Virus record (IMG/VR): IMGVR_UViG_3300025133_000033 | Origin: a virus | Direction: 5' to 3' (one strand) | Length of the DNA stretch: 64,000 nucleotides | In this document: positions 1 to 17,136 of the stretch, in pieces | Position numbering within the stretch: the first letter of the stretch is position 1 | Layout: every line of letters starts with the position of its first letter | Notes under the pieces: generated by a model | What the model was told of the DNA's origin: nothing | Databases searched by the model: none | Seen by the model: only the letters and a program-made list of their open reading frames with translations | Position numbers and translations under genes: made by a program

Positions 1-15
1 AAATAGTTTTTTGTT

Positions 16-30
16 TGGCACGCTATTTGC
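16..30 (+). promoter_or_regulatory. sigma54 (RpoN)-type -24/-12 promoter motif
   Basis: TGGCACGctatTTGC: GG-N10-GC spacing matching the TGGCACG-N4-TTGC consensus. Confidence 0.6.
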
Positions 31-41
31 GTAATTTTTCG

Positions 42-158
42 TCGTAAGTCGTTGGTATGAAAGGACTTAGGGCGAGCCGCCGCCGCCCGCCGCTGTAAGT
101 CGTTATATACCAAGGGTTTACGTCGATTTCTTGTGGGGGGTATAATACCCCCTTTTTT
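42..158 (+). ncRNA. putative ~115-nt two-hairpin small RNA
   Basis: Predicted start about 12 nt after the -12 GC; hairpins at ~40-74 and ~95-120; ends in an intrinsic terminator. Inferred, no family recognised. Confidence 0.35.
136..158 (+). terminator. intrinsic terminator
   Basis: GGGGGTA-TAA-TACCCCC followed by TTTTTT; the U-tract exists only on the + strand. Confidence 0.6.
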
Positions 159-160
159 GG

Positions 161-403
161 CTAATAATAGCCATCTTCGAACTCTTGGCAATTGAAGTCG
201 TTACAATCCCAACCATCCCCATCGGTGATGTCCTCATAGAGGTTGTCGGAACGCATCCCCTCGTGCCAGTCGATGTCGTCCTCCGTCCATGCGAAGGGGG
301 CTTCGCACTCCACCGTAGGGGGGTCGATGCGGTCGCACCAATCCTCGAACTCTGCGGCGATGTCAACGGGGAAGGCTTCGCGGGGGTCTTGGCGGCTAGT
401 CAT
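161..403 (-). CDS. small, highly acidic early protein (80 aa)
   Basis: GGAG RBS before ATG at 403, downstream of the promoter at 446-473; 25 D/E versus 4 R and no K. Confidence 0.7.
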   Translation of the reverse strand: MTSRQDPREAFPVDIAAEFEDWCDRIDPPTVECEAPFAWTEDDIDWHEGMRSDNLYEDITDGDGWDCNDFNCQEFEDGYY

Positions 404-445
404 GGCAGAAACTCCAGAAGAAAGAAACGTTGTGAACATGCTTCC

Positions 446-473
446 ATTATAGAGAGTATCGGCAATCTGTCAA
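446..473 (-). promoter_or_regulatory. sigma70-type promoter
   Basis: TTGACA-16 bp (gattgccgatactctc)-TATAAT. Confidence 0.8.
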
Positions 474-514
474 GCGGAACATCGTTAAATATCGAAATAA
501 ACTCAAAATACTTT

Positions 515-529
515 TGGCACGGGATTTGC
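515..529 (+). promoter_or_regulatory. sigma54-type -24/-12 promoter motif
   Basis: TGGCACGggatTTGC; predicted +1 near 541, at the start of the palindrome pair. Confidence 0.6.
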
Positions 530-530
530 G

Positions 531-1482
531 TAAGAAATCGTCGTAAGTCCTTTGATAGTAAGGGTTTACGGCGACGAACGGGCGGTTTTGGCCCTAAGTC
601 CTTTGATACCAACAGGTTACGTCAATATCTTTTGGGGGGTACGATTAAGTCAATAGTGTGGTAGGAGGCTCATGGAATAAATTTTATTTCTGTGCGTGAC
701 CCCATTAGAGGGGGTAGAATAGAATCGCGATATGGCCGAATAAATTTTATTTCTGTGCGTGACCCCATTGGAGGGGGTGAAATAGAATGCGGGGGGCACA
801 ATACCCCTCATAAGAAATCGTCGTAAGTCCTTTGATAGTAAGGGTTTACGGCGACGAACGGGCGGTTTTGGCCCTAAGTCCTTTGATACCAACAGGTTAC
901 GTCAATATCTTTTGGGGGGTACGATTAAGTCAATAGTGTGGTAGGAGGCTCATGGAATAAATTTTATTTCTGTGCGTGACCCCATTAGAGGGGGTAGAAT
1001 AGAATCGCGATATGGCCGAATAAATTTTATTTCTGTGCGTGACCCCATTGGAGGGGGTGAAATAGAATGCGGGGGGCACAATACCCCTCATAAGAAATCG
1101 TCGTAAGTCCTTTGATAGTAAGGGTTTACGGCGACGAACGGGCGGTTTTGGCCCTAAGTCCTTTGATACCAACAGGTTACGTCAATATCTTTTGGGGGGT
1201 ACGATTAAGCTAATAGTAGGGTAGGAGGCTTGTGGAATTTATTTTATTTTTGTGCAAGACCCCATTAGAGGGGTATGAACAGAATCGCTATATGGCCGAA
1301 TAAATTATATTTCTATGCTTAGCCCCATTAGAGGGGGGCAAATAGAATGCGGGTGGGATAGCACCCCCCACAAAAAATCGTCGTAAGTCGTTACTATGAA
1401 AGGAGTTAGGGCGACGACCGGGCGGTTTTCGTCGTAAGTCCTTTGATACCAACGGGTTACGTCAATATCTTTTGGGGGGTAC
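531..1482. repeat. 280-bp tandem repeat array, ~3.4 copies
   Basis: Units start at 531, 811, 1091, 1371. Copies 1-2 identical, copy 3 identical to 1209 then diverged, copy 4 partial and diverged. Each full unit has a palindrome pair and an internal 63-bp-period duplication (GAATAAATTTTATTTCTGTGCGTGACCCCATT at 675 and 738). Confidence 0.95.
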
Positions 1483-1639
1483 AGTAGATGCCTGCATGGG
1501 TACATACATACCCCTGTGTACACCCCCCATGTGGCGGGCGTAGGAAGCTACCAGGGGTGGTACGTACCCCCAGCAGCAGGGTGTGTGGTGTGTGGTAGAT
1601 GCTACCCTCTCCCCCCTTGGAGGGTAGGCACCCACCCAC

Positions 1640-1930
1640 CTACAGAGCCATTGCTTGCATAGCAGAGGATAGAGCACTACCCACCTGAGTGGTGGTCAGC
1701 TTATCACCATGATACCTACTCTTTAGTATACCGTGGCAGAGATCATCAGCTACCCCATTGGAGGTATCCCCTTCCCAATTGAGATAGGATAGTTCACTAG
1801 TCACAATGGGTAGTATGTCATCGAAGATCTGATCATAACGTAGTTGTATCTGGGGGTATCCATCAATAACATTACCCACCAATAAGGTGATGTTAGCAAT
1901 AGCTATATTGAGGGGGGTTGTTCTTTTCAT
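1640..1930 (-). CDS. hypothetical early protein (96 aa)
   Basis: ORF preceded by AAGG; follows 1979-2278 in the same direction. Confidence 0.55.
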   Translation of the reverse strand: MKRTTPLNIAIANITLLVGNVIDGYPQIQLRYDQIFDDILPIVTSELSYLNWEGDTSNGVADDLCHGILKSRYHGDKLTTTQVGSALSSAMQAMAL

Positions 1931-1978
1931 TTTCTTTTACCTTATAGCTCAAGAGAGGGGGTTGATAAAGGACTATTA

Positions 1979-2278
1979 TCAGCCTAAATATTTCATTCTT
2001 TTTGATTGTAAAACTTCTAGCTCCGTGAAGCTATGGTCGATGGTTGGATTAGGAAAGGTTTCACCATCGTAAACGAGGTACTTCCAAGAGAAGCTAAAGC
2101 ACCCCTCGGTAGAGCGGTTTTCTACCAATACTTTCGCGTTGTATGTTTCCTTGTCCTGCAATCCAAACTCCGCCCATTCTGCGGCACTAACAAGTAGCAC
2201 GCTGGAGAATGGGGCGTGGCGTAGTTGAATCTGAACTGAACCAACGGGAGTCGTCGAAGTTAAGGCTAATTGTGGCAT
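1979..2278 (-). CDS. hypothetical early protein (99 aa)
   Basis: AAAGGAAAC leader before ATG; directly downstream of promoter 2318-2346. Confidence 0.7.
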   Translation of the reverse strand: MPQLALTSTTPVGSVQIQLRHAPFSSVLLVSAAEWAEFGLQDKETYNAKVLVENRSTEGCFSFSWKYLVYDGETFPNPTIDHSFTELEVLQSKRMKYLG

Positions 2279-2317
2279 GTTTCGTTTCCTTTGTAGTGTT
2301 TTGTTTTGTATATCTGA

Positions 2318-2346
2318 ATTATATCAGATCGCTGCGAGTTTGTCAA
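2318..2346 (-). promoter_or_regulatory. sigma70-type promoter
   Basis: TTGACA-17-TATAAT, perfect consensus. Confidence 0.85.
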
Positions 2347-2360
2347 TAGGTCTTTTGATT

Positions 2361-2483
2361 TTATCCGAATCTTTTTGTGAATCGGATCTGTCGGTGTTTG
2401 GCGTACCACTTTGTGCGGGCGGTATCTTGCTGTCCACTTTGTGGGTTAAATCGTCGTCGTCGTCGTTTCATTCCGTCTGGCAT
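2361..2483 (-). CDS. 40-aa basic peptide (not in ORF track)
   Basis: MPDGMKRRRRRFNPQSGQQDTARTKWYAKHRQIRFTKRFG*; CCACTAGGAA leader; own promoter at 2520-2548. Confidence 0.6.
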   Translation of the reverse strand: MPDGMKRRRRRFNPQSGQQDTARTKWYAKHRQIRFTKRFG

Positions 2484-2519
2484 CGTGTCGTTCCTAGTGG
2501 CGTTGTTTTGTATGTTTTA

Positions 2520-2548
2520 ATTATATCGTATCAGGTGATGGTTGTCAA
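2520..2548 (-). promoter_or_regulatory. sigma70-type promoter
   Basis: TTGACA-accatcacctgatacga-TATAAT (17-bp spacer). Confidence 0.85.
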
Positions 2549-2560
2549 TAGGTCTTTTGA

Positions 2561-2692
2561 TTATTTTGTAGAATAGTGAATCTTTTTTACCGATACGATA
2601 GCCAATGTTCGAGCGTATCGCTCAAGATGCCCATACGACGAGAATTTCATTTCTACCTTACGTGTGCCGATGATGAGTGTGGCTTGAATCAT
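2561..2692 (-). CDS. 43-aa hypothetical early protein
   Basis: MIQATLIIGTRK...; CCACTAAGGAAAACAAA leader; own promoter at 2732-2760. Confidence 0.65.
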   Translation of the reverse strand: MIQATLIIGTRKVEMKFSSYGHLERYARTLAIVSVKKIHYSTK

Positions 2693-2731
2693 TTTGTTTT
2701 CCTTAGTGGCGTTGTGGCTTAACATGGTTGA

Positions 2732-2760
2732 ATTATACCGTATCAGGTGATGGTTGTCAA
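2732..2760 (-). promoter_or_regulatory. sigma70-type promoter
   Basis: TTGACA-accatcacctgatacgg-TATAAT; near-identical to 2520-2548. Confidence 0.85.
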
Positions 2761-2978
2761 TGGGTAGGACGCGACCAATTTGGATTATATAGAAAGTTTT
2801 CCTTATCTTTGTTTTCCATGATAACACGATGAACACCATCGGTATACCATACGGGGCATTTCTCGGTATAGCCATGTGATTGATAGCCACGCATCACAAC
2901 CAACAATTTCGATAGGCTAGTGTGGCCTAGTTCGATTACTTCGTGCTTAAAATTAACAAGTGGTTGAGAAGATTGCAT
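2757..2978 (-). CDS. 73-aa hypothetical early protein
   Basis: CCACTAAGGAAAACTAAA leader; own promoter at 3017-3044. Confidence 0.7.
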   Translation of the reverse strand: MQSSQPLVNFKHEVIELGHTSLSKLLVVMRGYQSHGYTEKCPVWYTDGVHRVIMENKDKENFLYNPNWSRPTH

Positions 2979-3016
2979 TTTAGTTTTCCTTAGTGGGTTG
3001 TGCTTTGTACTTCTTC

Positions 3017-3044
3017 ATTATACTAAGTATCGGCATTTTGTCAA
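3017..3044 (-). promoter_or_regulatory. sigma70-type promoter
   Basis: TTGACA-16 bp (aaatgccgatacttag)-TATAAT. Confidence 0.8.
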
Positions 3045-3107
3045 TAGGTAATCCACTTAAATCGAGATAATTATCAAAGTATTTTATATGGGTATTTTGT
3101 TTACGAT

Positions 3108-3122
3108 TGGCACGGCATTTGC
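3108..3122 (+). promoter_or_regulatory. sigma54-type -24/-12 promoter motif
   Basis: TGGCACGgcatTTGC. Confidence 0.55.
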
Positions 3123-3210
3123 GAAAGGGGGGGTTTTTTCAATCTAGTCATTTTGGGGGATAGGGGGGCGAAAATCGCTAGGTGGTTCCGGCTACAAGTT
3201 CTAGCTCTCC

Positions 3211-3264
3211 CTGAAAGGACCACTTTTCCGAATCAGCTCTAGCCCATCTGAAAGGACCACTTTT
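3211..3264. repeat. 17-bp direct repeat, 2 copies
   Basis: CTGAAAGGACCACTTTT at 3211 and 3248. Confidence 0.85.
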
Positions 3265-3307
3265 TAGATAAGAAAAAAGGCCGCATCATTTTCTGACACG
3301 ACCATTC

Positions 3308-3511
3308 TTACAGGGGCCACTTGGGGGAAGAGGGGGCACGAGAGCCGGTAAGAGTTTCAAGCTCATCTTTCAACCTCATAATTTCTTCAATCTTCCAACT
3401 CCAGTTACTCTCAGGAGCAACCTGTTGATGATAAGCAACCCTTAGCCCACGCTGGAGCTTACGAATTGATAAGCTGATAGATGTGATTCTCTGGTGCTGA
3501 AACGGAGTCAT
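3308..3511 (-). CDS. hypothetical protein (67 aa)
   Basis: ORF overlapping the end of the upstream HTH gene. Confidence 0.5.
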   Translation of the reverse strand: MTPFQHQRITSISLSIRKLQRGLRVAYHQQVAPESNWSWKIEEIMRLKDELETLTGSRAPSSPKWPL

Positions 3512-3725
3512 GGTCGGTACTGTTTCCTCCGACGTTAACTACACCGCAAACGCCTCTTCCTGACTTCTTTTTAATCCCTAATTTCTGTCTCATTTTCCTA
3601 ACACTCTGCAAGGTAACCATCCGTCCACTACTAGCTGTAAGATCAGCCGCAATCTCACTATCTTTTAGTTTATGAGCGTTCTCACGAATGAAGTTTTTCT
3701 CTGCATCTGACCATTTGATATTCAT
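3459..3725 (-). CDS. small HTH-type DNA-binding protein
   Basis: MNIKWSDAEKNFIREN...DSEIAADL...TLQSVRKMRQKLGI pattern; GAGG RBS before ATG at 3725. Confidence 0.65.
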   Translation of the reverse strand: MNIKWSDAEKNFIRENAHKLKDSEIAADLTASSGRMVTLQSVRKMRQKLGIKKKSGRGVCGVVNVGGNSTDHDSVSAPENHIYQLINS

Positions 3726-3802
3726 TTTCCTCTGTCTCCTAGAAAAAGTTGCTGGTGTGACGTATATACTATTATAGTTGAGTTGACAACTTTTCGCATA
3801 AC

Positions 3803-4150: not shown

Positions 4151-4391
4151 GATAGTTTATGATGGTAACGATGAAAATACCAAAGTTATCGACAAAGAAA
4201 CAGGTAAGCCTGTAGAGGGAATTATCTCTTGTAATATCGTCATGGAACCTTATCTTACCTTGGCTACTCTTACGTTTAGTGAAGGCATCGAGTTTGAACT
4301 AGATAATGTGGAGGCTGAGAAAGTATATGAAGATTCCGAAGGGGTACACGGAGGAGCAAGTCCTCCAGATAATCGAGAGAATATCGAATAA
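4140..4391 (+). CDS. hypothetical protein
   Basis: ORF overlapping its neighbours in an operon; start placed at MKLKIVY. Confidence 0.6.
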   Translation: MKLKIVYDGNDENTKVIDKETGKPVEGIISCNIVMEPYLTLATLTFSEGIEFELDNVEAEKVYEDSEGVHGGASPPDNRENIE

Positions 4392-4920
4392 GCTGGCCTC
4401 AACGTTTAAGTTCGGTTACTATGAAATCGACGATATGAAGCAAGAAGCGGCTCTCTTCGCATGGCAGGGCATAGAGAATTACGATGGCGTGCGTCCCTTA
4501 GAAAATTTTCTTTGGGTCCACGTCCGTAATCGCCTCTATAATCTTAAACGTAATAATTATGCTCGGCCCGATACTCCCTGCGACCACTGCCCCTTTGATG
4601 CGTACATAGAACGCAAATGCACGCTTCATGACAACCTTATGAACTGTGAGCCTTACGCCAGACATGAGACGAGGAACGAACTCAAAAAGAATCTCATGTC
4701 TACCAAGCAGGGAGAAGACATGCTACAGGGTCAGCCTCATAGTGTAGAGGATACAGCTCTTTCGAATGAGCTTTATTCAATGATAGACAAAGCTATTCCT
4801 ATCTTCATGAGAGAAGACTGGCTTAGATTTGTTAATAAATTAAGACTGCCCAAAGCTAAACGTGAGACCTTACTAAACCACATCCGACTAATATTGAGTG
4901 AAAATGGCATCGACCCGTAA
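4327..4920 (+). CDS. phage sigma70-family sigma factor (candidate late sigma)
   Basis: Region-2-like EIDDMKQEAALFAWQGIENYDGVRPLENFLWVHVRNRLYNLKR followed by a Cys cluster CDHC...C...C. Confidence 0.7.
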   Translation: MKIPKGYTEEQVLQIIERISNKLASTFKFGYYEIDDMKQEAALFAWQGIENYDGVRPLENFLWVHVRNRLYNLKRNNYARPDTPCDHCPFDAYIERKCTLHDNLMNCEPYARHETRNELKKNLMSTKQGEDMLQGQPHSVEDTALSNELYSMIDKAIPIFMREDWLRFVNKLRLPKAKRETLLNHIRLILSENGIDP

Positions 4921-6834: not shown

Positions 6835-8001
6835 ATGAAGAAAGCATTAGTAACGGGGATAACAGGGCAAGATGGCTCTTACTTAGCAGAACTTTTACTG
6901 GAAAAAGGATATGAGGTAGTTGGGCTGGTACGTCGAACTAGTGTTTGTAATCTAGAGAGACTGAAGGACTTGATCAAGAATCCAAAGGTTACCCTAGTGG
7001 AAGGGGAAGTTTGCGACCCACTTTCGGTGTATTCAATAGTGGAAAACGGCAACTTCGATGAGATTTATAACCTTGCGGCACAGTCGCATGTGGGAACATC
7101 CTTCGATCAGCCGTCATATACTTTTGACGTAGATGCGAAAGGTCCACTTAATTTTCTTGAATCCATCAGGAAGTATAGCCCTCGAACGAAGTTTTATCAA
7201 GCTTCTACAAGCGAGTTATTTGGACAGAATTTCACATATCGTCCCCATCCAGATATTCCTCCAGTGAACCATAGCTCGCTGAGCGAGATGGGGAAACACC
7301 TACTAAAAGAAGAACCCACAGCTACTTATCAGGACGAAGATACTCCCTTCGCTCCACAATCGCCTTATGCATGTGCTAAACTAGCTGCTCACGATTTAGT
7401 GAGAATTTATCGTGAAGGTTATGGGCTACATGCTTCGTGTGGTATCCTCTTCAATCATGAATCGGAGAGGCGTGGAGAGAAATTTGTTACGCGAAAGATT
7501 ACTAAGTGGTTAGCTGATTTTTATCATTGGTTTGAACGAGTAGAGGGAGAAACCCCTCAGCGATGGTCTTGCCTTGATACTAGAGATGATGACCAAGTGT
7601 TTTGGGATCTTGGGGTCAGCTTCCCTAAGCTTCGATTAGGTAATTTAGATGCGTATCGAGACTGGGGACATGCAGAGGACTATGTTCGTGCTATGTGGAT
7701 TATGTTACAGCGTGAAGTACCTGACGATTATGTAATCGCTACAGGTGAAACTTGTTCCGTCCGTGGTTTTTTAGAAAGAGCATTCAATGAGATTGGCATT
7801 ACAGGCTTCGAACCGTATGTGGTTATTGATCCGAAATTTTATCGTCCAGCCGAGGTGGAATACCTGTGTGGGCGAGCCCATAAAGCAAAGACTGCTTTAG
7901 GTTGGGAAACAGAGATTTCTTTTGATGAACTAGTACACCGTATGGTTTGGAGTGATATCAATGGGTCGAAAAAGAAAGAGCAAGCGTGCTGCAAAGGCTA
8001 A
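6835..8001 (+). CDS. gmd: GDP-mannose 4,6-dehydratase
   Basis: ALVTGITGQDGSYLAELLL, YNLAAQSHV, YQASTSELFG, SPYACAK, GILFNHES, FVTRKIT, LGNLDAYRDWGHA. Confidence 0.97.
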   Translation: MKKALVTGITGQDGSYLAELLLEKGYEVVGLVRRTSVCNLERLKDLIKNPKVTLVEGEVCDPLSVYSIVENGNFDEIYNLAAQSHVGTSFDQPSYTFDVDAKGPLNFLESIRKYSPRTKFYQASTSELFGQNFTYRPHPDIPPVNHSSLSEMGKHLLKEEPTATYQDEDTPFAPQSPYACAKLAAHDLVRIYREGYGLHASCGILFNHESERRGEKFVTRKITKWLADFYHWFERVEGETPQRWSCLDTRDDDQVFWDLGVSFPKLRLGNLDAYRDWGHAEDYVRAMWIMLQREVPDDYVIATGETCSVRGFLERAFNEIGITGFEPYVVIDPKFYRPAEVEYLCGRAHKAKTALGWETEISFDELVHRMVWSDINGSKKKEQACCKG

Positions 8002-8332
8002 AAGAGGAAAAGGGAAAAGAGTAAGAAGCAAGAGAAGTTATAGGCAGAACAGAAGACAAGATCCTACCTATATCAAGTGGAGGAACGATGTTAAGGATAG
8101 AGACGACCACTGTTGTCAGTGGCCAAACTGTGGCTCTAAACGCCGCATTCAAGTTCACCATATAAAAACTTGGGCTGCACATCCTGGCCTACGTTTTGTT
8201 ATGGCGAACGGCATAACGCTGTGTGAGCGTTGCCATGAATCAATTAAGGGTAAAGAGGTTCATTATGAAGCCTTCTTCCTTAAGATTCTAGAGTACAAAA
8301 TGATTAATAAGCTACGTCAACGACGAGCTTAG
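7961..8332 (+). CDS. HNH endonuclease
   Basis: RDDHCCQWPNCG...VHHIK...NGITLCERCH; basic N-terminus. Confidence 0.85.
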   Translation: MGRKRKSKRAAKAKRGKGKRVRSKRSYRQNRRQDPTYIKWRNDVKDRDDHCCQWPNCGSKRRIQVHHIKTWAAHPGLRFVMANGITLCERCHESIKGKEVHYEAFFLKILEYKMINKLRQRRA

Positions 8333-8351
8333 TCCACAAAGGAGAGAATCC

Positions 8352-9323
8352 ATGAGACGTTTTGCAATAAGCCTGATAGTTATGGCTGCAATGATACTTC
8401 CTTCTATTGCTATGGCACAAGATGTAGCTCAACATCTTCAAGACGTAAGCGTGACGATCAAGTCAAAGAACCAATATAATAGCGGCGGATCTGAAGGGTC
8501 GGGCGTTCTTATTACCAGGGAAGTTAAAATCAAAGATGGCGGCAAAGAGACAGTTAAGGTTAATCTTGTATGGACTGCTGCCCACGTCATTACTAATCTA
8601 CGTACCACCCGCACTATCATTGATAGCAAGGGACAGAAAACGACTATCGTAGAATTTCGTGATGCTCAAATTGTAAAAGAGCTTGTAGAGGATGGTCGTA
8701 AGGTTGGAGAGCTTAAGATGGACGCAAAGGTCATCTTATATAGTGACTCCGAAGACGGACATGATCTAGCACTTCTATTGGTACGTAAGAAGGGGTTTGT
8801 GGGTTCAAGTGCCACATTCCATCTTGGTTCTAAAAAAGCCCCTGTTGGTATTGGGACGCGACTATTTCATGTTGGTTCTCTTTTAGGTCAGTCAGGTGCG
8901 AACTCCATGACTAACGGTATTATGTCTCAGGTGGGACGTGTACTACAGCTTGGTACTGGAGATGGTACTATCTTTGACCAAACAACGTGTGCAGCATTCC
9001 CTGGTTCTTCTGGTGGCGGGGTGTTCCTAGCTGGAACAAAGAAAGAAGAAGTGAGGTACGTAGGGATGCTTGTACGCGGTGCTGGTGAGACATTCAATCT
9101 AATTGTCCCAGTTCGCCGTATGTATGAATGGGCAGAAGCCCGAAACGTTCTTTGGGCACTTGATCCTGCTGTTGTCGCTCCATGTCTGGATGATATCAAA
9201 AGTATTGAGCCTGAAGCACAAGTTGCTGACCATGCTAGTATATCCCACCCCAAGTCTAAAGAACAAAAGTTCAAGTTCATGATCCGTGAGATGAAACAGC
9301 CAGAGATAGATGAGCGAGAATAA
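8352..9323 (+). CDS. trypsin-like serine protease with signal peptide
   Basis: TAAH, DLALL and GSSGGG triad motifs; MRRFAISLIVMAAMILPSIAMA signal peptide. Confidence 0.88.
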   Translation: MRRFAISLIVMAAMILPSIAMAQDVAQHLQDVSVTIKSKNQYNSGGSEGSGVLITREVKIKDGGKETVKVNLVWTAAHVITNLRTTRTIIDSKGQKTTIVEFRDAQIVKELVEDGRKVGELKMDAKVILYSDSEDGHDLALLLVRKKGFVGSSATFHLGSKKAPVGIGTRLFHVGSLLGQSGANSMTNGIMSQVGRVLQLGTGDGTIFDQTTCAAFPGSSGGGVFLAGTKKEEVRYVGMLVRGAGETFNLIVPVRRMYEWAEARNVLWALDPAVVAPCLDDIKSIEPEAQVADHASISHPKSKEQKFKFMIREMKQPEIDERE

Positions 9324-9804
9324 GTTTACTGTAATTAGAGATACGCGAGAGAAACCGGCACATGGCTGGTCATTTGATCCTGATGGCTACTGTGCCGGTA
9401 CTCTTGTTACTAAGCTAGACACTGGAGACTATAGTATTCAGGGTTTAGAGGAAGTTGTAGCTATAGAGCGGAAAGAAACAATACAGGAGTTCGCCCGCAA
9501 CTGTGTAGAAAAGCGTTGGGGCGACTGTATGAAAAGATTAAAGGATATAGAACACCCTTATATTATATTTGAGTTTACCGAAGAAGATGTTGACCGATAC
9601 CCTCTCTCTGCACGAGTGCCTGCCAGAGTACGTAAGATGATGTGCTGGGCTAATGGCAAACCTCGTATAGCAGTTAAATATATCTGGAAAGTAATAAAGA
9701 CGGCACGCGAATACGGGATAGATGTTCGTTTTTGTGGAGATAAGATGACAGCAGAGAAGCAGGCGTATCAAATTATGCGAGAAATCCATGAAGCATATTT
9801 ATGA
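9310..9804 (+). CDS. ERCC4-domain nuclease
   Basis: DTREK...LDTGDYSI...IERKETIQE motif. Confidence 0.8.
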   Translation: MSENKFTVIRDTREKPAHGWSFDPDGYCAGTLVTKLDTGDYSIQGLEEVVAIERKETIQEFARNCVEKRWGDCMKRLKDIEHPYIIFEFTEEDVDRYPLSARVPARVRKMMCWANGKPRIAVKYIWKVIKTAREYGIDVRFCGDKMTAEKQAYQIMREIHEAYL

Positions 9805-11878
9805 TGTAGACAGCTATGAATATTCTTATCTAAGAGTTTCCGGTGATGACCTCAAAGAGGCAAAGATACGTAATCCTCTTCATGATCTAAACGATTGGGA
9901 AAAGGAGAACTATCATCTTCATGTATTACGTATTATGCGTAACCCAGAATATATCCACTGGACAGTAAAGAATCTTCTTAATATAGACTTGTTACCAGAG
10001 CAGTGTGTCATACTGCAAGAGCTATGGACAAAAGCGTTCCCTATGTATATCGCTTCCCGTGGTTTTGGTAAGTCTTTTCTTTTGGCCGTATACGGTATGC
10101 TCCGTTGTTTGCTTGTGCCGGGGTCCAAGATCGTTATTGTTGGTGCTGCATTCCGACAGTCTAAGGTGATCTTTGAGTATATGGATGTTATCTGGAAGAA
10201 CGCTCCCCTCTTCCGTAGCCTTTGCAGCGATGCTAGTGGGCCACGTCGTGATGTTGACCGCTGTACCATGAAGGTAAACGATAGCTGGACTATCGCTGTT
10301 CCTTTGGGGGATGGCACCAAGATCCGTGGTTTACGTGCCCACACGATTATTGCTGACGAATTCAATTCTATACCTGTTGAGATTTATGAAACAGTTGTGG
10401 CAGGTTTCGCTTCTGTTTCTAAAGATCCAGCAGAGAATGTGAAGGAAGCAGCTAAGCGTAAGGCTATGAAAGAGGATGGCGTATGGTCAGAGCAAGAAGA
10501 AGAGATTTATCAAGATCGCCATCAAAACCAGTCTATACTTTCCGGCACAGCAGGCTATGACTTTGAGCCGTATGCTGACTATTGGAAGGTCTATAAAAAG
10601 ATGATTGCGGGAGAGGGCTATACGAGCGAAGCATCCGAAGAAGAGGGTGTAGAATCTCAAGGTAGTCAAATTCCTGAGTATATGCAACGTCTAGACAAGG
10701 ATCAGTTCACAGTAATCCGTATTCCATACGAGCTGATTCCCGAAGGCTTTATGGATGATCAGCAAGTGTCTCGTTCTCGTGCGACTATGCATAGCGGCAT
10801 CTATCTAATGGAATATGGTGCGTGCTTTGCTAAAGACTCTCAGGGGTTTTTCAAAAGAACCCTTGTTGAGGGCTGCACAGCGACAGAGAAAATGATAGCA
10901 AGGGTAGGTTGGCCTAGATGGTGCGATGAGCCCTTTGATGTAGTAACTAGGGGGCGTGCTGGAAAACAGTATGTCTTTGCTATTGACCCCGCCTCTGAAA
11001 ATGACAACTTTGCTCTTGTTATTCTTGAACTCCACGAAGAGCATCATAGAGTTGCTTATGTATGGACTACTACCAAGAAGGACTTCCAAGAACGCAAGAA
11101 GCTTGGACTTACAGAGTCCGACGATTACTATAGTTTTTGTGTTAGAAAGATCAGAGACCTATATAGATCCTTCCCTTGTGTCCATCTAGCTATTGATGCT
11201 CAAGGAGGGGGATATGCTATTGCAGAAGGACTAAGGGACTCTGACAAGATTCTCCCTGGAGAACGTCCTATCTTGCCAATAATTGATGATAAAAAAGAGC
11301 AAGATACTGATGTGTTGGACGGAGATCATATCCTTGAATTTATACAATTTGCGGACGCTAAATGGACCTCTCAAGCAAACCACGGTCTGAGAAAAGATAT
11401 GGAAGACAAAGTTCTCTTATTTCCTCGTTTTGACAATGTAACTCTCGCCCTTGTATCTGAGCAGGACAAAATCCAGTTCAGGATGCTCAAGGAGAGACTA
11501 GGTGATAGTAAGGCTTTGAAACTTTATGACACTTTGGAGGATGTTGTTCTTGAGGTTGAGGAGCTTAAAACAGAACTTTCCACTATCACAGTTAGTCGTA
11601 CCGCATCCGGTCGCGAGAAGTTCAGCACTCCAGAAATAAAGCTGAATACTGGCAAGAAGGGGAGTATGCGGAAGGATCGCTATAGTGCTCTTGTTATGGC
11701 AAATATGGTAGCACGATCTATTCAGCGAGAGATTACCCCTCCTGCTTATGTGGGTGTCGGACGTGTAGCTCAAGCAAGATCAGGGCCTATAGACAAGAAT
11801 AAGCCTATGTATGCTGCATCTCAAGAATGGGCCAGTTATTCTCCTGCCTCTGTTGGGGTAATACGTAGAGGCCAATAG
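9788..11878 (+). CDS. terL: terminase large subunit
   Basis: Walker A ASRGFGKS, Walker B IIADEF, RGLRA, nuclease AIDPASEND and KDRYSAL. Confidence 0.9.
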   Translation: MKHIYDVDSYEYSYLRVSGDDLKEAKIRNPLHDLNDWEKENYHLHVLRIMRNPEYIHWTVKNLLNIDLLPEQCVILQELWTKAFPMYIASRGFGKSFLLAVYGMLRCLLVPGSKIVIVGAAFRQSKVIFEYMDVIWKNAPLFRSLCSDASGPRRDVDRCTMKVNDSWTIAVPLGDGTKIRGLRAHTIIADEFNSIPVEIYETVVAGFASVSKDPAENVKEAAKRKAMKEDGVWSEQEEEIYQDRHQNQSILSGTAGYDFEPYADYWKVYKKMIAGEGYTSEASEEEGVESQGSQIPEYMQRLDKDQFTVIRIPYELIPEGFMDDQQVSRSRATMHSGIYLMEYGACFAKDSQGFFKRTLVEGCTATEKMIARVGWPRWCDEPFDVVTRGRAGKQYVFAIDPASENDNFALVILELHEEHHRVAYVWTTTKKDFQERKKLGLTESDDYYSFCVRKIRDLYRSFPCVHLAIDAQGGGYAIAEGLRDSDKILPGERPILPIIDDKKEQDTDVLDGDHILEFIQFADAKWTSQANHGLRKDMEDKVLLFPRFDNVTLALVSEQDKIQFRMLKERLGDSKALKLYDTLEDVVLEVEELKTELSTITVSRTASGREKFSTPEIKLNTGKKGSMRKDRYSALVMANMVARSIQREITPPAYVGVGRVAQARSGPIDKNKPMYAASQEWASYSPASVGVIRRGQ

Positions 11879-11882
11879 GTAT

Positions 11883-11889
11883 TGGTGTA
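11883..11889 (+). promoter_or_regulatory. candidate late-promoter motif TGGTGTA
   Basis: Intergenic, before portal; same motif at 14929, 17266/17276 and 20620. Confidence 0.4.
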
Positions 11890-11935
11890 CTAATAATAGG
11901 TATTGCAATCCCATTCTTTCTTTAGCAGGGGCGTC

Positions 11936-14092
11936 ATGAGTAAAGAAGCTAATAAATATCCCAAGAGTCGAGCCAGAGATGGTGTCGATGGTCAAGGACC
12001 AGCTCTAGTAAGCTGGGCTAACGAGGCTACGCAAGAAAAAGCCTTTGATACATATGCTTCAGCTTTAGAAGAGGCATCTTATAGTGTTGCTAATTATCGT
12101 AGAGACTTTTCAGGTGTAACCTCAAATACTGATGGTCGTCCAGGGTTGAGAAACGTAGATTTCGATTGGTTTCGTCCTGGTCAAGCAGCACCTATAAAAC
12201 CAAAGGACATTATGGCGTACTCACGCTTTGTCTATCGTCGTATAGGGATAATTCATAATGCAATTGACCTAATGGGAGATTTTGCATGTCAAGGCATCAG
12301 AATAGTTCATCCTAATCCCCGTATTGAACGCTTCTATAACGACTGGTTCAATGAAGTAAGCGGGAAGTTTGTTTCTGAGCGTTTAGGGCATCTTCTCTTC
12401 AGAGAAGCGAATGTCCCGGTTCGAATGTTCACTGCTAAGATGAATAAGTCAAAACGACTAGACATGCAGAAGTCCGTAGGTTCCGCTGAGATAAGAGTGG
12501 ATAAGAATGATGCAAAATTCCAAAAGGCGGAAATTCCGTGGAAATATAATTTCATCGACCCTCTATTAGTTGAGCCTGTTGGTGGACCTCTAGCAACGCT
12601 AACTAAAAATAAGCTCCTAACTCTTAAGGTTCCTTATCATTTAAAGCGTGAAATTCAACGACTACTTGATTCTAATAATCCCGAAGTACAAAAAGTACTA
12701 GAGGATATTTCCCCAGATATTATCAAGGCCGTTTCTAGCAATAGCGATATCATTCTACCTCCTGACAAGACGTATATGTATCACTATAAAAAGGATGACT
12801 GGCAGACATGGGCCGACCCTATGACCTATTCTGCATTTGAGCCCTTAAATCTATATCAAAGATTACAGCTCGCAGACAAGGCCGCTCTAGATGGGGCTAT
12901 CTCTAAGATTCGCGTCTGGAAGATTGGTTCTCTAGAACATAAACTAGCTCCGACTCCAACCACATCAGCTACTTTATCTGATATGCTAGGGGCGAATGTC
13001 GGAGGTGGAACGATTGACATCATTTGGGGTCCAGACATTGAGCTTATAGAAACAAGTAGTGATCTGCACCAGTTCTTAGGCGAAGAAAAATATCATTCGA
13101 CTCTTATGGCCATCTATGCTACTTTAGGGATTCCTCCAACTCTGACGGGAACCTTTGGTGCTTCTGGTACAACCAATAACTTCATTTCATTGAAGACTCT
13201 CACTGAGCGGTTGAACTATGTGCGAAATATCATAATTGACTTTTGGACAACTCAATTAAAGATTGTTCAAAAATCAATGGGCTTTAGAATGCCTGCACAA
13301 GTTGAGTTTGACTATATGTATCTTGATGATCCAATGGCAGTCTCTAATTTGTTAATGAGCATGGCTGATAGAAATATCATTAGTGATGAGTTTGTACAAC
13401 GCAACATTAAAGCTAAGCCAAATATTGAGAATCGTCGTGTTATTAACGAAAACAAGAGACGTGAGAATGCAGACATGGAAAAGGTTAGCCCTTATCATCA
13501 AGTAGATCAAGATCATGCATTGAAAAAGATTGCTTTGCAGACAGGACAGTCTGCTCCTTCTGAAGTGGGATTAGAACTAGACAACCGTAAGAGTGGTGAG
13601 AAATCCCTTATGGATATGAAGGAACAACAAATGAAAGTGAGCCGTCCTCCTGCTGGTCAAAAACAACCAGGATCGCCAGGAAGACCAAAGAACACACGCG
13701 ACACAAAACCGCGTAAACCAAAGAAGTTTGTTCCTAAGAATAAGGCGGCAGTAGAGATGTGGGCTAAGACAGCACAGAAGAAAATCTCTGATGTTATTAA
13801 CCCTCAAGTTATAGCTGCATTCCAAAAGAGCAACTTAAGAAGTCTAACTGCGGAACAATTTAGTCAGTTAGAGAAACTAAAATTCGAGATTTTGTGTAAT
13901 TTAGATATAGGAGGAGAGCTTACTGAGGCAGCATTAGCCACAGCGTCTCAAAATCCTACCCCTAATGTCCATGCACTATTTGAATCTTGGACTACAGAAG
14001 CTCTTGAATTATTAGGTAAAAAGTCATTCTCAATTGACGAAGTACGTGATCTAAGAGTTTCATTCTATGTTGATAATATTTCGGAGACATAA
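11936..14092 (+). CDS. portal protein
   Basis: Position between terL and protease; IIHNAIDLMGDF and IYATLGIPPTL portal-like segments. Confidence 0.75.
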   Translation: MSKEANKYPKSRARDGVDGQGPALVSWANEATQEKAFDTYASALEEASYSVANYRRDFSGVTSNTDGRPGLRNVDFDWFRPGQAAPIKPKDIMAYSRFVYRRIGIIHNAIDLMGDFACQGIRIVHPNPRIERFYNDWFNEVSGKFVSERLGHLLFREANVPVRMFTAKMNKSKRLDMQKSVGSAEIRVDKNDAKFQKAEIPWKYNFIDPLLVEPVGGPLATLTKNKLLTLKVPYHLKREIQRLLDSNNPEVQKVLEDISPDIIKAVSSNSDIILPPDKTYMYHYKKDDWQTWADPMTYSAFEPLNLYQRLQLADKAALDGAISKIRVWKIGSLEHKLAPTPTTSATLSDMLGANVGGGTIDIIWGPDIELIETSSDLHQFLGEEKYHSTLMAIYATLGIPPTLTGTFGASGTTNNFISLKTLTERLNYVRNIIIDFWTTQLKIVQKSMGFRMPAQVEFDYMYLDDPMAVSNLLMSMADRNIISDEFVQRNIKAKPNIENRRVINENKRRENADMEKVSPYHQVDQDHALKKIALQTGQSAPSEVGLELDNRKSGEKSLMDMKEQQMKVSRPPAGQKQPGSPGRPKNTRDTKPRKPKKFVPKNKAAVEMWAKTAQKKISDVINPQVIAAFQKSNLRSLTAEQFSQLEKLKFEILCNLDIGGELTEAALATASQNPTPNVHALFESWTTEALELLGKKSFSIDEVRDLRVSFYVDNISET

Positions 14093-16137: not shown

Positions 16138-17136
16138 ATGAAATTTTTTGACTATACTCCAGAAATGACGGAAGTGCTTCGTCAATCCGGTAGCCAAAAG
16201 AAGGAAGAATCTTTGGCTGGAGTAGCTGAAATAGCTAAGGCATTGGAAACTCCATTGCGTAAGGGCGTGATGAGCGGCGATATCCTTGATGGTATCTTCG
16301 AAGTCGTTAATCTAGCTCCTGGTGCTACCAGTGAATTCCCGCTTGACTTCCTGGCTCCTGGTACTGAGAAGGATTTCGTGGCATACACGATTCCTAATCA
16401 TGGCCGTATTCCAGAACGTCACGTAGAAGGTGATTACGTGATGGTCCCAACCTACGACGTAGGTGCATCAATCGACTGGTTGTTGAAGTATGCTCGTGAC
16501 GCTCGCTGGGATGTTGTTGGTAGAGCATTGGACGTTATGCGTTCACAGTTTACCAAGAAAATGAATGATGATGGGTGGCACACACTTATCTCCGCAGGCG
16601 TTGATCGTAACATCTTGGTTTATGATCCAGATGCCGCTAATGGCCAATTCTCTAAGAGATTGGTTTCTCTATTGAAGGTTACCATGCGTCGTAACGGCGG
16701 TGGAAACTCGAATTCTATCAGTCGCGGTCAATGCACTGACTTGTTTGTCAGTCCAGAAGCTATTGAAGATATTCGCAACTGGGGTGTAGACGAAGTAGAT
16801 GAAATTACCCGTCGTGAGTTAATCACTCAAGATGGTGGTATGCTTGTCCGCATCTTCCAAGTAAACCTTCACGATCTTGATGAGCTTGGCGACGAGCAAG
16901 AATATCAGGTCTTCTATGAGAGTGATCTTTCAGGAACTCTTCCTGCTGGTGACTCAGAAATCGTAGTTGCCTTGGATCGCAGCAAGAACGACAGCTTTGT
17001 AATGCCTGTCCGTGCTGGCCTTCAGATCTTTGAAGACGATACCCTTCACCGTCAACGCCGTGGTGGTGTTTATGGATGGGGCGAACATGGTTTCGCAGCT
17101 TTGGATAACCGAAGAGTTCTTATTGGCTCCTTCTAA
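16138..17136 (+). CDS. major capsid protein (probable HK97 fold)
   Basis: Canonical position, 332 aa, strong RBS, followed by a terminator. Confidence 0.85.
   Translation: MKFFDYTPEMTEVLRQSGSQKKEESLAGVAEIAKALETPLRKGVMSGDILDGIFEVVNLAPGATSEFPLDFLAPGTEKDFVAYTIPNHGRIPERHVEGDYVMVPTYDVGASIDWLLKYARDARWDVVGRALDVMRSQFTKKMNDDGWHTLISAGVDRNILVYDPDAANGQFSKRLVSLLKVTMRRNGGGNSNSISRGQCTDLFVSPEAIEDIRNWGVDEVDEITRRELITQDGGMLVRIFQVNLHDLDELGDEQEYQVFYESDLSGTLPAGDSEIVVALDRSKNDSFVMPVRAGLQIFEDDTLHRQRRGGVYGWGEHGFAALDNRRVLIGSF

Follow-up and report, generated by a model that had tools for sequence, protein, structure and literature searches.

The Early Region and Its Predicted Control Elements

The window, by which we mean the whole 64,000-nucleotide stretch analyzed from IMG/VR virus record IMGVR_UViG_3300025133_000033, covers the beginning of a large contig from a siphovirus-like phage. 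Its landmark genes and the elements discussed here are collected in Table 1. Positions 1-3800 contain small genes on the - strand, five of which possess a perfect TTGACA-N16/17-TATAAT promoter on that strand. A tRNA/tmRNA scan found none.

Table 1. Landmark genes and predicted control elements of the window
Feature	Position	Strand	Description
Sigma-54-type -24/-12 motif, copy 1	16-30	+	TGGCAC-N5-TTGC; TGGCACGCTATTTGC
Palindrome A	39-75	+	Core 45-69, 25 bp, TAAGTC-N13-GACTTA; flanks TCGTCG/GGGCGA
Linker	70-95		GC-rich; fixed length, variable sequence; 26 nt in this phage
Palindrome B	96-120	+	TAAGTCGTT-N7-AAGGGTTTA; related to A, 51 bp on
Intrinsic-terminator-like hairpin	135-158	+ orientation only	GGGGGGTATAATACCCCC, then T6
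Acidic early gene	161-403	-	80 aa; convergent with module copy 1; no Pfam family
Consensus sigma-70 promoter	446-473	-	12/12 matches; serves gene 161-403; back-to-back with sigma-54 motif 2
Sigma-54-type motif, copy 2	515-529	+	
Tandem array	531-1482	+	280 bp x 3.4; four palindrome pairs, 544/595, 824/875, 1104/1155, 1384/1435
Perfect sigma-70 promoters	473-446, 2346-2318, 2548-2520, 2760-2732, 3044-3017	-	
Consensus sigma-70 promoter	3017-3044	-	Back-to-back with sigma-54 motif 3
Sigma-54-type motif, copy 3	3108-3122	+	No palindrome after it
Terminase gene	9788-11878	+	
Capsid gene	16138-17136	+	
Tape-measure-like protein		+	3013 aa
Split DnaE genes and intein-bearing DnaB gene		-	

A conserved (GC)CGATA box lies in the spacer of early sigma-70 promoters, both in the window (446-473, 3017-3044) and in related loci (L022, L017, G001). 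The box occurs in 120 of 283 distinct consensus promoters of related loci, where chance would supply a few, and it hints at an additional factor or at promoters of an extended type. Beyond the early region, a 204-aa protein (4306-4920, +) has a weak Sigma70_r2 match (E = 2.9e-4, under the curated cut-off). It is possibly a phage sigma-like factor, encoded at the head of the structural arm.

At the left end of the window, a sigma-54 motif, two palindromes, and a terminator-like hairpin follow one another on the + strand. The consensus motif is present where it had been predicted, and wherever its sequence is free to vary (TT ahead of the motif, a purine following TGGCAY, T ahead of TTGC) it agrees with the consensus of the 103 copies described below. 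Palindrome A begins 14 nt past the TTGC. The hairpin at the far end is called a terminator on the + strand alone, exactly as anticipated; read on the - strand, the stem has no U-tract behind it.

The layout had been predicted to recur, and it does so at 515-529 and 538-574. The 538-574 stem, checked by hand, pairs at all 15 bp with three G-U pairs. Here, motif copy 2 heads a tandem array. Each 280-bp unit of the array contains two 63-bp AT-rich sub-repeats with a CCCC-N-GGGGG mini-dyad (660-815, repeated in every unit), enclosed by a GGGGGGTA...TACCCC stem. The same stem stands at copy 1 (135-153) with no insert, and a search for the AT-rich sub-repeats in relatives did not find them. GTACA-rich sequence occupies 1478-1530. 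Among 83 relative copies, 11 have a doubled GTACA motif (TGTACA-N3/4-TGTACA) after the module, and 26 have at least one GTACA or TGTAC 8-60 nt past the second palindrome (e.g., L119, L131, L065, L074).

Motif copy 3 faces the end of the - strand gene 3308-3511 and that gene's terminator (3303-3279). Just after the motif (3127-3139) comes a run of G5-7 followed by T5-7, with no pairing C-run; the same run follows degenerate second palindromes of relatives (L049, L051, L063, and others). Non-coding DNA at 3160-3270, between motif 3 and the 3303-3279 terminator, carries CTGAAAGGACCACTTTT twice as a direct repeat on the + strand.

Motif copies 2 and 3 each diverge from a sigma-70 promoter, whose -35 hexamer lies 41 and 63 bp away, respectively. 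Exact TGGCAC-N5-TTGC occurs three times in the window (16, 515, and 3108), always on the + strand and always in non-coding DNA, when shuffles lead one to expect 0.08. No gene is faced by any of the three.

A Dispersed Family of Modules

The module has a definite anatomy that is conserved among related phages, with fixed geometry, a clustered distribution, and a predominantly antisense orientation. The sequence of the first hairpin matches exactly in 11 IMG/VR contigs, and these contigs harbor many palindromes, mostly in pairs ~53 nt apart. A family pattern combining TGGCAY-N5-TTGC, a 14-15 nt spacer, and a 25-bp palindrome (TAAGTC-N13-RYTTA) identifies 99 IMG/VR stretches with 103 distinct copies, as against ~2 estimated by chance. 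As many as seven copies lie inside 6 kb. Widening the spacer to 16-40 nt, with 25 spacings summed, yields merely 55 stretches. A promoter-only pattern returned 14 loci, none with a hairpin, and these were taken as unrelated.

The spacing is sharply defined: among motifs in the fetched loci, a spacer of 14 or 15 accounts for 96 copies and adjacent values for 1-3 each. A second palindrome is usually present 53 bp beyond the first. Specifically, 72 of 83 relatives have an offset of 53 bp, and 72 of 83 have a linker of 28 nt. The linker can be G-rich, C-rich, or itself palindromic; only its length is constant. Similarly, the palindrome arms are conserved and the 7-bp centers vary. The whole ~95-bp element is a nested palindrome. 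With its palindrome pair, the module places dyad-symmetric sites in helical phase near a promoter, the geometry expected of an enhancer for a sigma-54 activator. Given that the palindrome centers are about five helical turns apart, both would present themselves on the same face of the DNA.

In all, 1.16 Mb of fetched loci contain 256 motifs (~4 estimated by chance). Each of four large records confines its motifs to a single region of 2-10 kb: a 122-kb record has all 12 of its motifs in 10.5 kb, a 223-kb record has 7 in 6 kb, a 192-kb record has 6 in 2.4 kb, and a 161-kb record has 10 of 12 in 3.7 kb. With the pattern reversed as a control, the count is 0. Genomes carry roughly 6-13 consensus sigma-54 sites each.

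Flanking genes of the family contigs share 65-71% DNA identity with the window's terminase, capsid, and 4898-5728 genes; thus, the family contigs are relatives of this phage. One of them, the complete circular assembly G001 (161 kb), shows synteny to the window, with proteins ~50% identical. By these sequence comparisons, the module is common to a large clade of uncultivated, mostly large phages. Against cultured phages, blastn of 1-3500 and of one module returned nothing or only a chance 20-mer, the capsid protein had no match, and the terminase matched just distant Bacillus and Microcystis phages at ~25% identity, so no cultured relative or host can be named. A relatives search with a neighboring 370-aa protein found none. 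Finally, a scan of genome contigs produced a misbinned phage fragment of 1.2 kb in a Chloroflexota MAG, along with two hits due to chance, and so gave no host information.

Orientation at Cassette Boundaries

Gene orientation around the modules was read from GC skew, the ORF-length test being uninformative. Calibrated on the window's genes, skew is positive on the coding strand in 51 of 56 and 35 of 38 bins. By this measure, genes lie on the strand opposite to the module in 86 of 94 cases downstream and 70 of 84 upstream. Overall, ~90% of palindrome-linked copies are antisense to the genes that flank them. Modules often stand back-to-back with a divergent promoter, either sigma-70-like or a second sigma-54 motif. 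In L022, L043, and L045, the order is gene, inverted palindrome pair, inverted sigma-54 motif, sigma-70 promoter, next gene.

Terminators are scarce. A terminator on the module's own strand lies within 130 nt of only 4 of 82 modules; copy 1 of the window has such a terminator. A sense terminator accompanies 9 of 82. The antisense orientation combined with the shortage of same-strand terminators implies that the usual product, if any, is an antisense transcript running into the preceding cassette.

RNA Hairpins or DNA Sites

The original prediction considered the 16-158 segment a complete small-RNA transcription unit. Extended to the family, this reading supposes that the module encodes a sigma-54-driven structured sRNA, perhaps a sponge, a decoy, or an antitoxin mimic, made from many copies per genome and having the two hairpins as its product. 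Copy 1 fits the idea well: it has a promoter, a predicted +1 at the base of a hairpin, and a terminator functional on the + strand only. Moreover, with the spacing fixed at 14-15 nt, the RNA would begin with a hairpin at its 5' end. For RNA from 38-160, the predicted folding energy is -56.9 kcal/mol (z = -6.0) when read from the + strand, compared with -46.6 kcal/mol (z = -4.5) from the - strand. Both of the related palindromes on which the hairpins were proposed are present (45-69, 96-120), but the predicted fold of copy 1 is a single long hairpin in which palindrome A pairs with palindrome B.

Comparison of copies lends the stems little support. Among 23 palindrome pairs, pairing equals the shuffled value under the two-hairpin model (77.4% versus 78.0%) and likewise under the one-long-hairpin model. 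Partner shuffles of 83 copies give z = 0.4 for the first palindrome and 2.75 for the second. Mismatches prevail in the inner stem of the first palindrome: pairs 6-20 and 7-19 form in <50% of the 83 copies, the same as in shuffles. The long hairpin, with z = -4.7 for its outer stem and -1.35 for loop-to-loop pairing across copies, was discarded as unsupported. A larger alignment does contain an excess of double-sided changes (119 versus 88.6, reached in 0 of 500 shuffles) and a covariation score of 0.162 versus 0.147 (reached in 8 of 500). This small excess is not specific to RNA, because a DNA palindrome whose two half-sites change symmetrically produces it as well. In short, the shuffle tests on 23 and 83 copies leave the stems essentially devoid of covariation, and no Rfam family matches, whether at gathering thresholds in the whole window or at E<=1 in 1-3800.

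Folding energies show a slight strand asymmetry. On average, the motif strand folds at -28.1 kcal/mol, the opposite strand at -25.9, and shuffled sequence at -20.2; the element as a whole is thus marginally more stable on the promoter strand, as a small RNA would have it. At the level of individual elements, however, just 48 of 83 favor the promoter strand, and single palindromes fold at just -6 to -7 kcal/mol.

Wobble pairs are a further argument on the RNA side. In the second palindrome, whose consensus is TAAGTCCTT/AAGGGTTTA, two neighboring G-T wobbles stand on the motif strand in 54-56 of 83 copies. That is what a single-stranded fold there would predict, and it counts against reading the palindrome as a DNA site. 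The G-U pairs of the 538-574 stem had been taken to favor a + strand RNA. The argument holds for the array copy, but the wobbles are inherited sequence, and the second palindrome is flipped, reversing them, in ~6-12 copies. In addition, some palindrome pairs have no sigma-54 motif; these stand 25-60 bp away from sigma-70 promoters and are found in both orientations.

A second phage clade possesses a different arrangement. It has a single TAAGTC palindrome with two convergent sigma-54-type motifs and GGGGCCCC boxes at 19 nt on each side. The unit is ~93 bp long, symmetric, and repeated many times per contig (L144:2467-2559; also L143, L160, L161, L167, L177, and L181). Two flank variants combine in this clade with no pairing kept.

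Collectively, the lack of clear covariation, the flipped and promoterless pairs, the fixed offset, and the architecture in the second clade favor protein-binding DNA sites on one helical face. The complete sRNA unit is not supported as a general reading, and we regard a structured sRNA as an unlikely purpose for the module. A ~115-nt RNA may still arise from copy 1, which would then be one representative of a module dispersed over cassette boundaries. From its sequence features, the module more likely exerts control at the DNA level than through a structured RNA.

Is the Motif a Sigma-54 Promoter?

The GG-N10-GC core within TGGCAC-N5-TTGC is present, and its spacing is kept throughout. Positions that the search pattern left free follow the sigma-54 consensus in the 103 copies: TT precedes TGG in 77-79%, a purine follows TGGCAY in 97%, and T precedes TTGC in 84%. 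About half of the motifs that have no palindrome point along genes. Several such sense motifs lie ~35 nt upstream of conserved small genes that have a ribosome-binding site, or immediately before a sigma-70 promoter, and the small genes adjoining sense motifs are conserved across contigs. The free positions and the sense copies, together with ~100 related-phage copies at the fixed 14-15 nt spacing, strengthen the sigma-54 promoter reading.

One small gene has an especially regular setting: a conserved 44-aa Cys-rich, Zn-ribbon-like ORF lies ~35 nt downstream of a sense sigma-54-type motif and has a conserved leader. It is found at L026:9445-9579 (-), with homologues in L072, L070, L133, L086, and L077, and has no homologue in the window.

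Motifs also occur in compound arrangements. Pairs stand face-to-face, with 5-6 bp between their TTGC ends, or back-to-back, with 7-8 bp between their TGGCA ends, and other motifs form alternating arrays of 3-4. Examples are L026 (G001) at 8000-12000, L080:7760-7900, L086, L131, and L118. A CCTTAC-N6-GTAAGG mini-dyad and a sigma-70 promoter often follow these pairs and arrays.

Face-to-face and alternating arrays are awkward for real promoters. They raise a second doubtful alternative, namely that TGGCAY-N5-TTGC is the site of a phage protein or some other protein rather than of sigma-54, and that the module is a multi-protein operator array with no transcription of its own. Boxes that stand face-to-face, back-to-back, alternating in threes and fours, or symmetrically round a single palindrome are operator-like. 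The phages also appear to lack the relevant machinery: neither the AAA+ activator domain PF00158 nor sigma-54 (PF04552) is found in eight related records, four of them complete, so that an activator is hypothetical or host-encoded. Tandem duplication of a divergent pair can, however, generate the face-to-face, back-to-back, and alternating arrangements alike. An operator array would also have to accommodate a sigma-54 consensus match that reaches unselected positions, the constant GG-N10-GC spacing, the single sense copies ~35 nt upstream of conserved genes with ribosome-binding sites, and the strong antisense bias, which suggests selection related to transcription. We regard it as being as unlikely as the sRNA.

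Relation to Known Systems

The closest analogue of the module, judged by layout, appears to be the downstream enhancers of FlrC. In Vibrio, FlrC enhancers are usually located downstream of sigma-54 start sites (PMC6504787). Like the V. cholerae FlrC targets flaA and flgK, the module combines a -24/-12 promoter with paired dyad-symmetric sites in helical phase, downstream of the start (PMC6504787). Unlike in the FlrC system, the first site of the module starts at ~+3, no AAA+ activator is known, and the element belongs to phages, recurs about a dozen times in each genome, and runs antisense to genes. To our knowledge, an enhancer starting at ~+3 is nearer the start site than any documented case.

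Sigma-54-dependent sRNAs (Qrr1-5, GlmY/GlmZ, CrcZ) likewise have a promoter that immediately precedes a short non-coding unit rich in hairpins, and copy 1 also has a terminator. In contrast to these sRNAs, the module has no Rfam match and essentially no covariation-supported fold, its terminator is usually missing, and the same palindromes also occur with no promoter. Many short, conserved, predicted protein sites dispersed in intergenic phage DNA call to mind the stoperators of cluster A mycobacteriophages. Stoperators are single asymmetric sites of 13-14 bp oriented with transcription, whereas the module consists of paired 25-bp palindromes tied to a sigma-54 motif.

A further likeness is to the PeSLs of T4-like phages, in which a conserved promoter-plus-dyad motif separates the small cassettes, early or accessory, that make up a variable region (PMC2839356, PMC4122927). 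This trait is present here: the composite motif flanks small cassettes beside an early sigma-70 promoter (L022, L043, L045, and the window). A PeSL, found in myoviruses, is a sigma-70 early promoter plus a sense-direction terminator stem-loop. The module, by contrast, is a double palindrome with an antisense sigma-54 motif in siphovirus-like genomes, and the sense-terminator trait is absent: the palindromes have no U-tract, separate sense terminators accompany just 9 of 82 modules, and the promoter is antisense.

The PeSL-like layout (PMC2839356, PMC4122927) also inspires an explanation that we judge improbable: the element could be a single-stranded DNA, cruciform, or recombination substrate, a PeSL-like or attC-like boundary repeat through which early cassettes are gained, lost, and shuffled, and which carries the promoter as a passenger. 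Consistent with this possibility, the ~95-bp element is a nested palindrome that marks cassette boundaries, many near-identical copies exist per genome, and there are tandem duplications, including the 280-bp array of the window and degenerate repeats in G001. Recombination alone leaves unexplained the fixed 14-15 nt coupling to the sigma-54 motif, the orientation bias, and the conservation of the arms across phages at ~50% protein identity, and shuffling may be a by-product of repeated sequence.

A Model for the Module

Sigma-54 promoters are silent until opened by an ATP-driven activator. The explanation that we prefer, with about even confidence and on the strength of the sequence patterns, is that the module couples a sigma-54 promoter at the DNA level to a downstream pair of palindromes that binds a regulator. 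Positions 16-158 would then be one copy of a composite control module placed at the boundaries of early cassettes, and the palindromes would be protein-binding sites, serving as downstream enhancer or as operator. Host sigma-54 RNA polymerase would park at the motif as a closed complex, and a factor on the palindromes would decide whether it fires. Firing would send antisense transcripts into the preceding cassette, and these could cause shut-off or insulation of early genes. At copy 1, the + strand terminator would cut the transcript to ~115 nt and thereby spare gene 161-403. The presence of palindrome sequence in the RNA would be a consequence of the enhancer's position, not the product.

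A bolder version of the promoter-plus-regulator model, which we consider a long shot, dispenses with the classical AAA+ protein. Host sigma-54 polymerase would instead be fired by an unrecognized phage factor on the palindromes (~+3 to +95), or by extrusion of the palindromes, turning on a genome-wide antisense shut-off of early cassettes. If true, it would constitute both a new route of sigma-54 activation and a new phage timing switch.

Finally, the parked complexes might never be activated. They would then form roadblocks that meet transcription head-on, or insulators, between cassettes, or else a decoy by which replicating phage DNA titrates host sigma-54. Sigma-54 holoenzyme is reported to occupy many sites in a transcriptionally silent state (PMC4591121), and the absence of an activator from the related phage records searched, the dozen or so consensus sites per genome, and the few sense terminators between gene ends and modules (9 of 82) would all suit such a role, but a decoy needs neither palindromes nor fixed orientation, sense copies appear to drive genes, and the + strand terminator of copy 1 implies real + strand transcription, so we think this explanation improbable too.

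Implications

In the literature, PeSLs and downstream sigma-54 enhancers are described; we found no description of the module, nor any published report of phages using sigma-54 promoters systematically. The module is a sharply defined element of 125 bp that is easy to synthesize and testable in vitro. It marks a phage clade with ~6-13 sigma-54 consensus sites per genome, joined to a phased double palindrome and directed mostly against the phage's own early genes. If the sites are merely bound, they would represent a natural case of parked sigma-54 polymerase serving as chromatin-like architecture or as a decoy. If they are active, they would give these phages an inherent means of timing their early genes, an antisense or insulator system gated by an activator, and would also supply a clue to host range, since the host must have rpoN.
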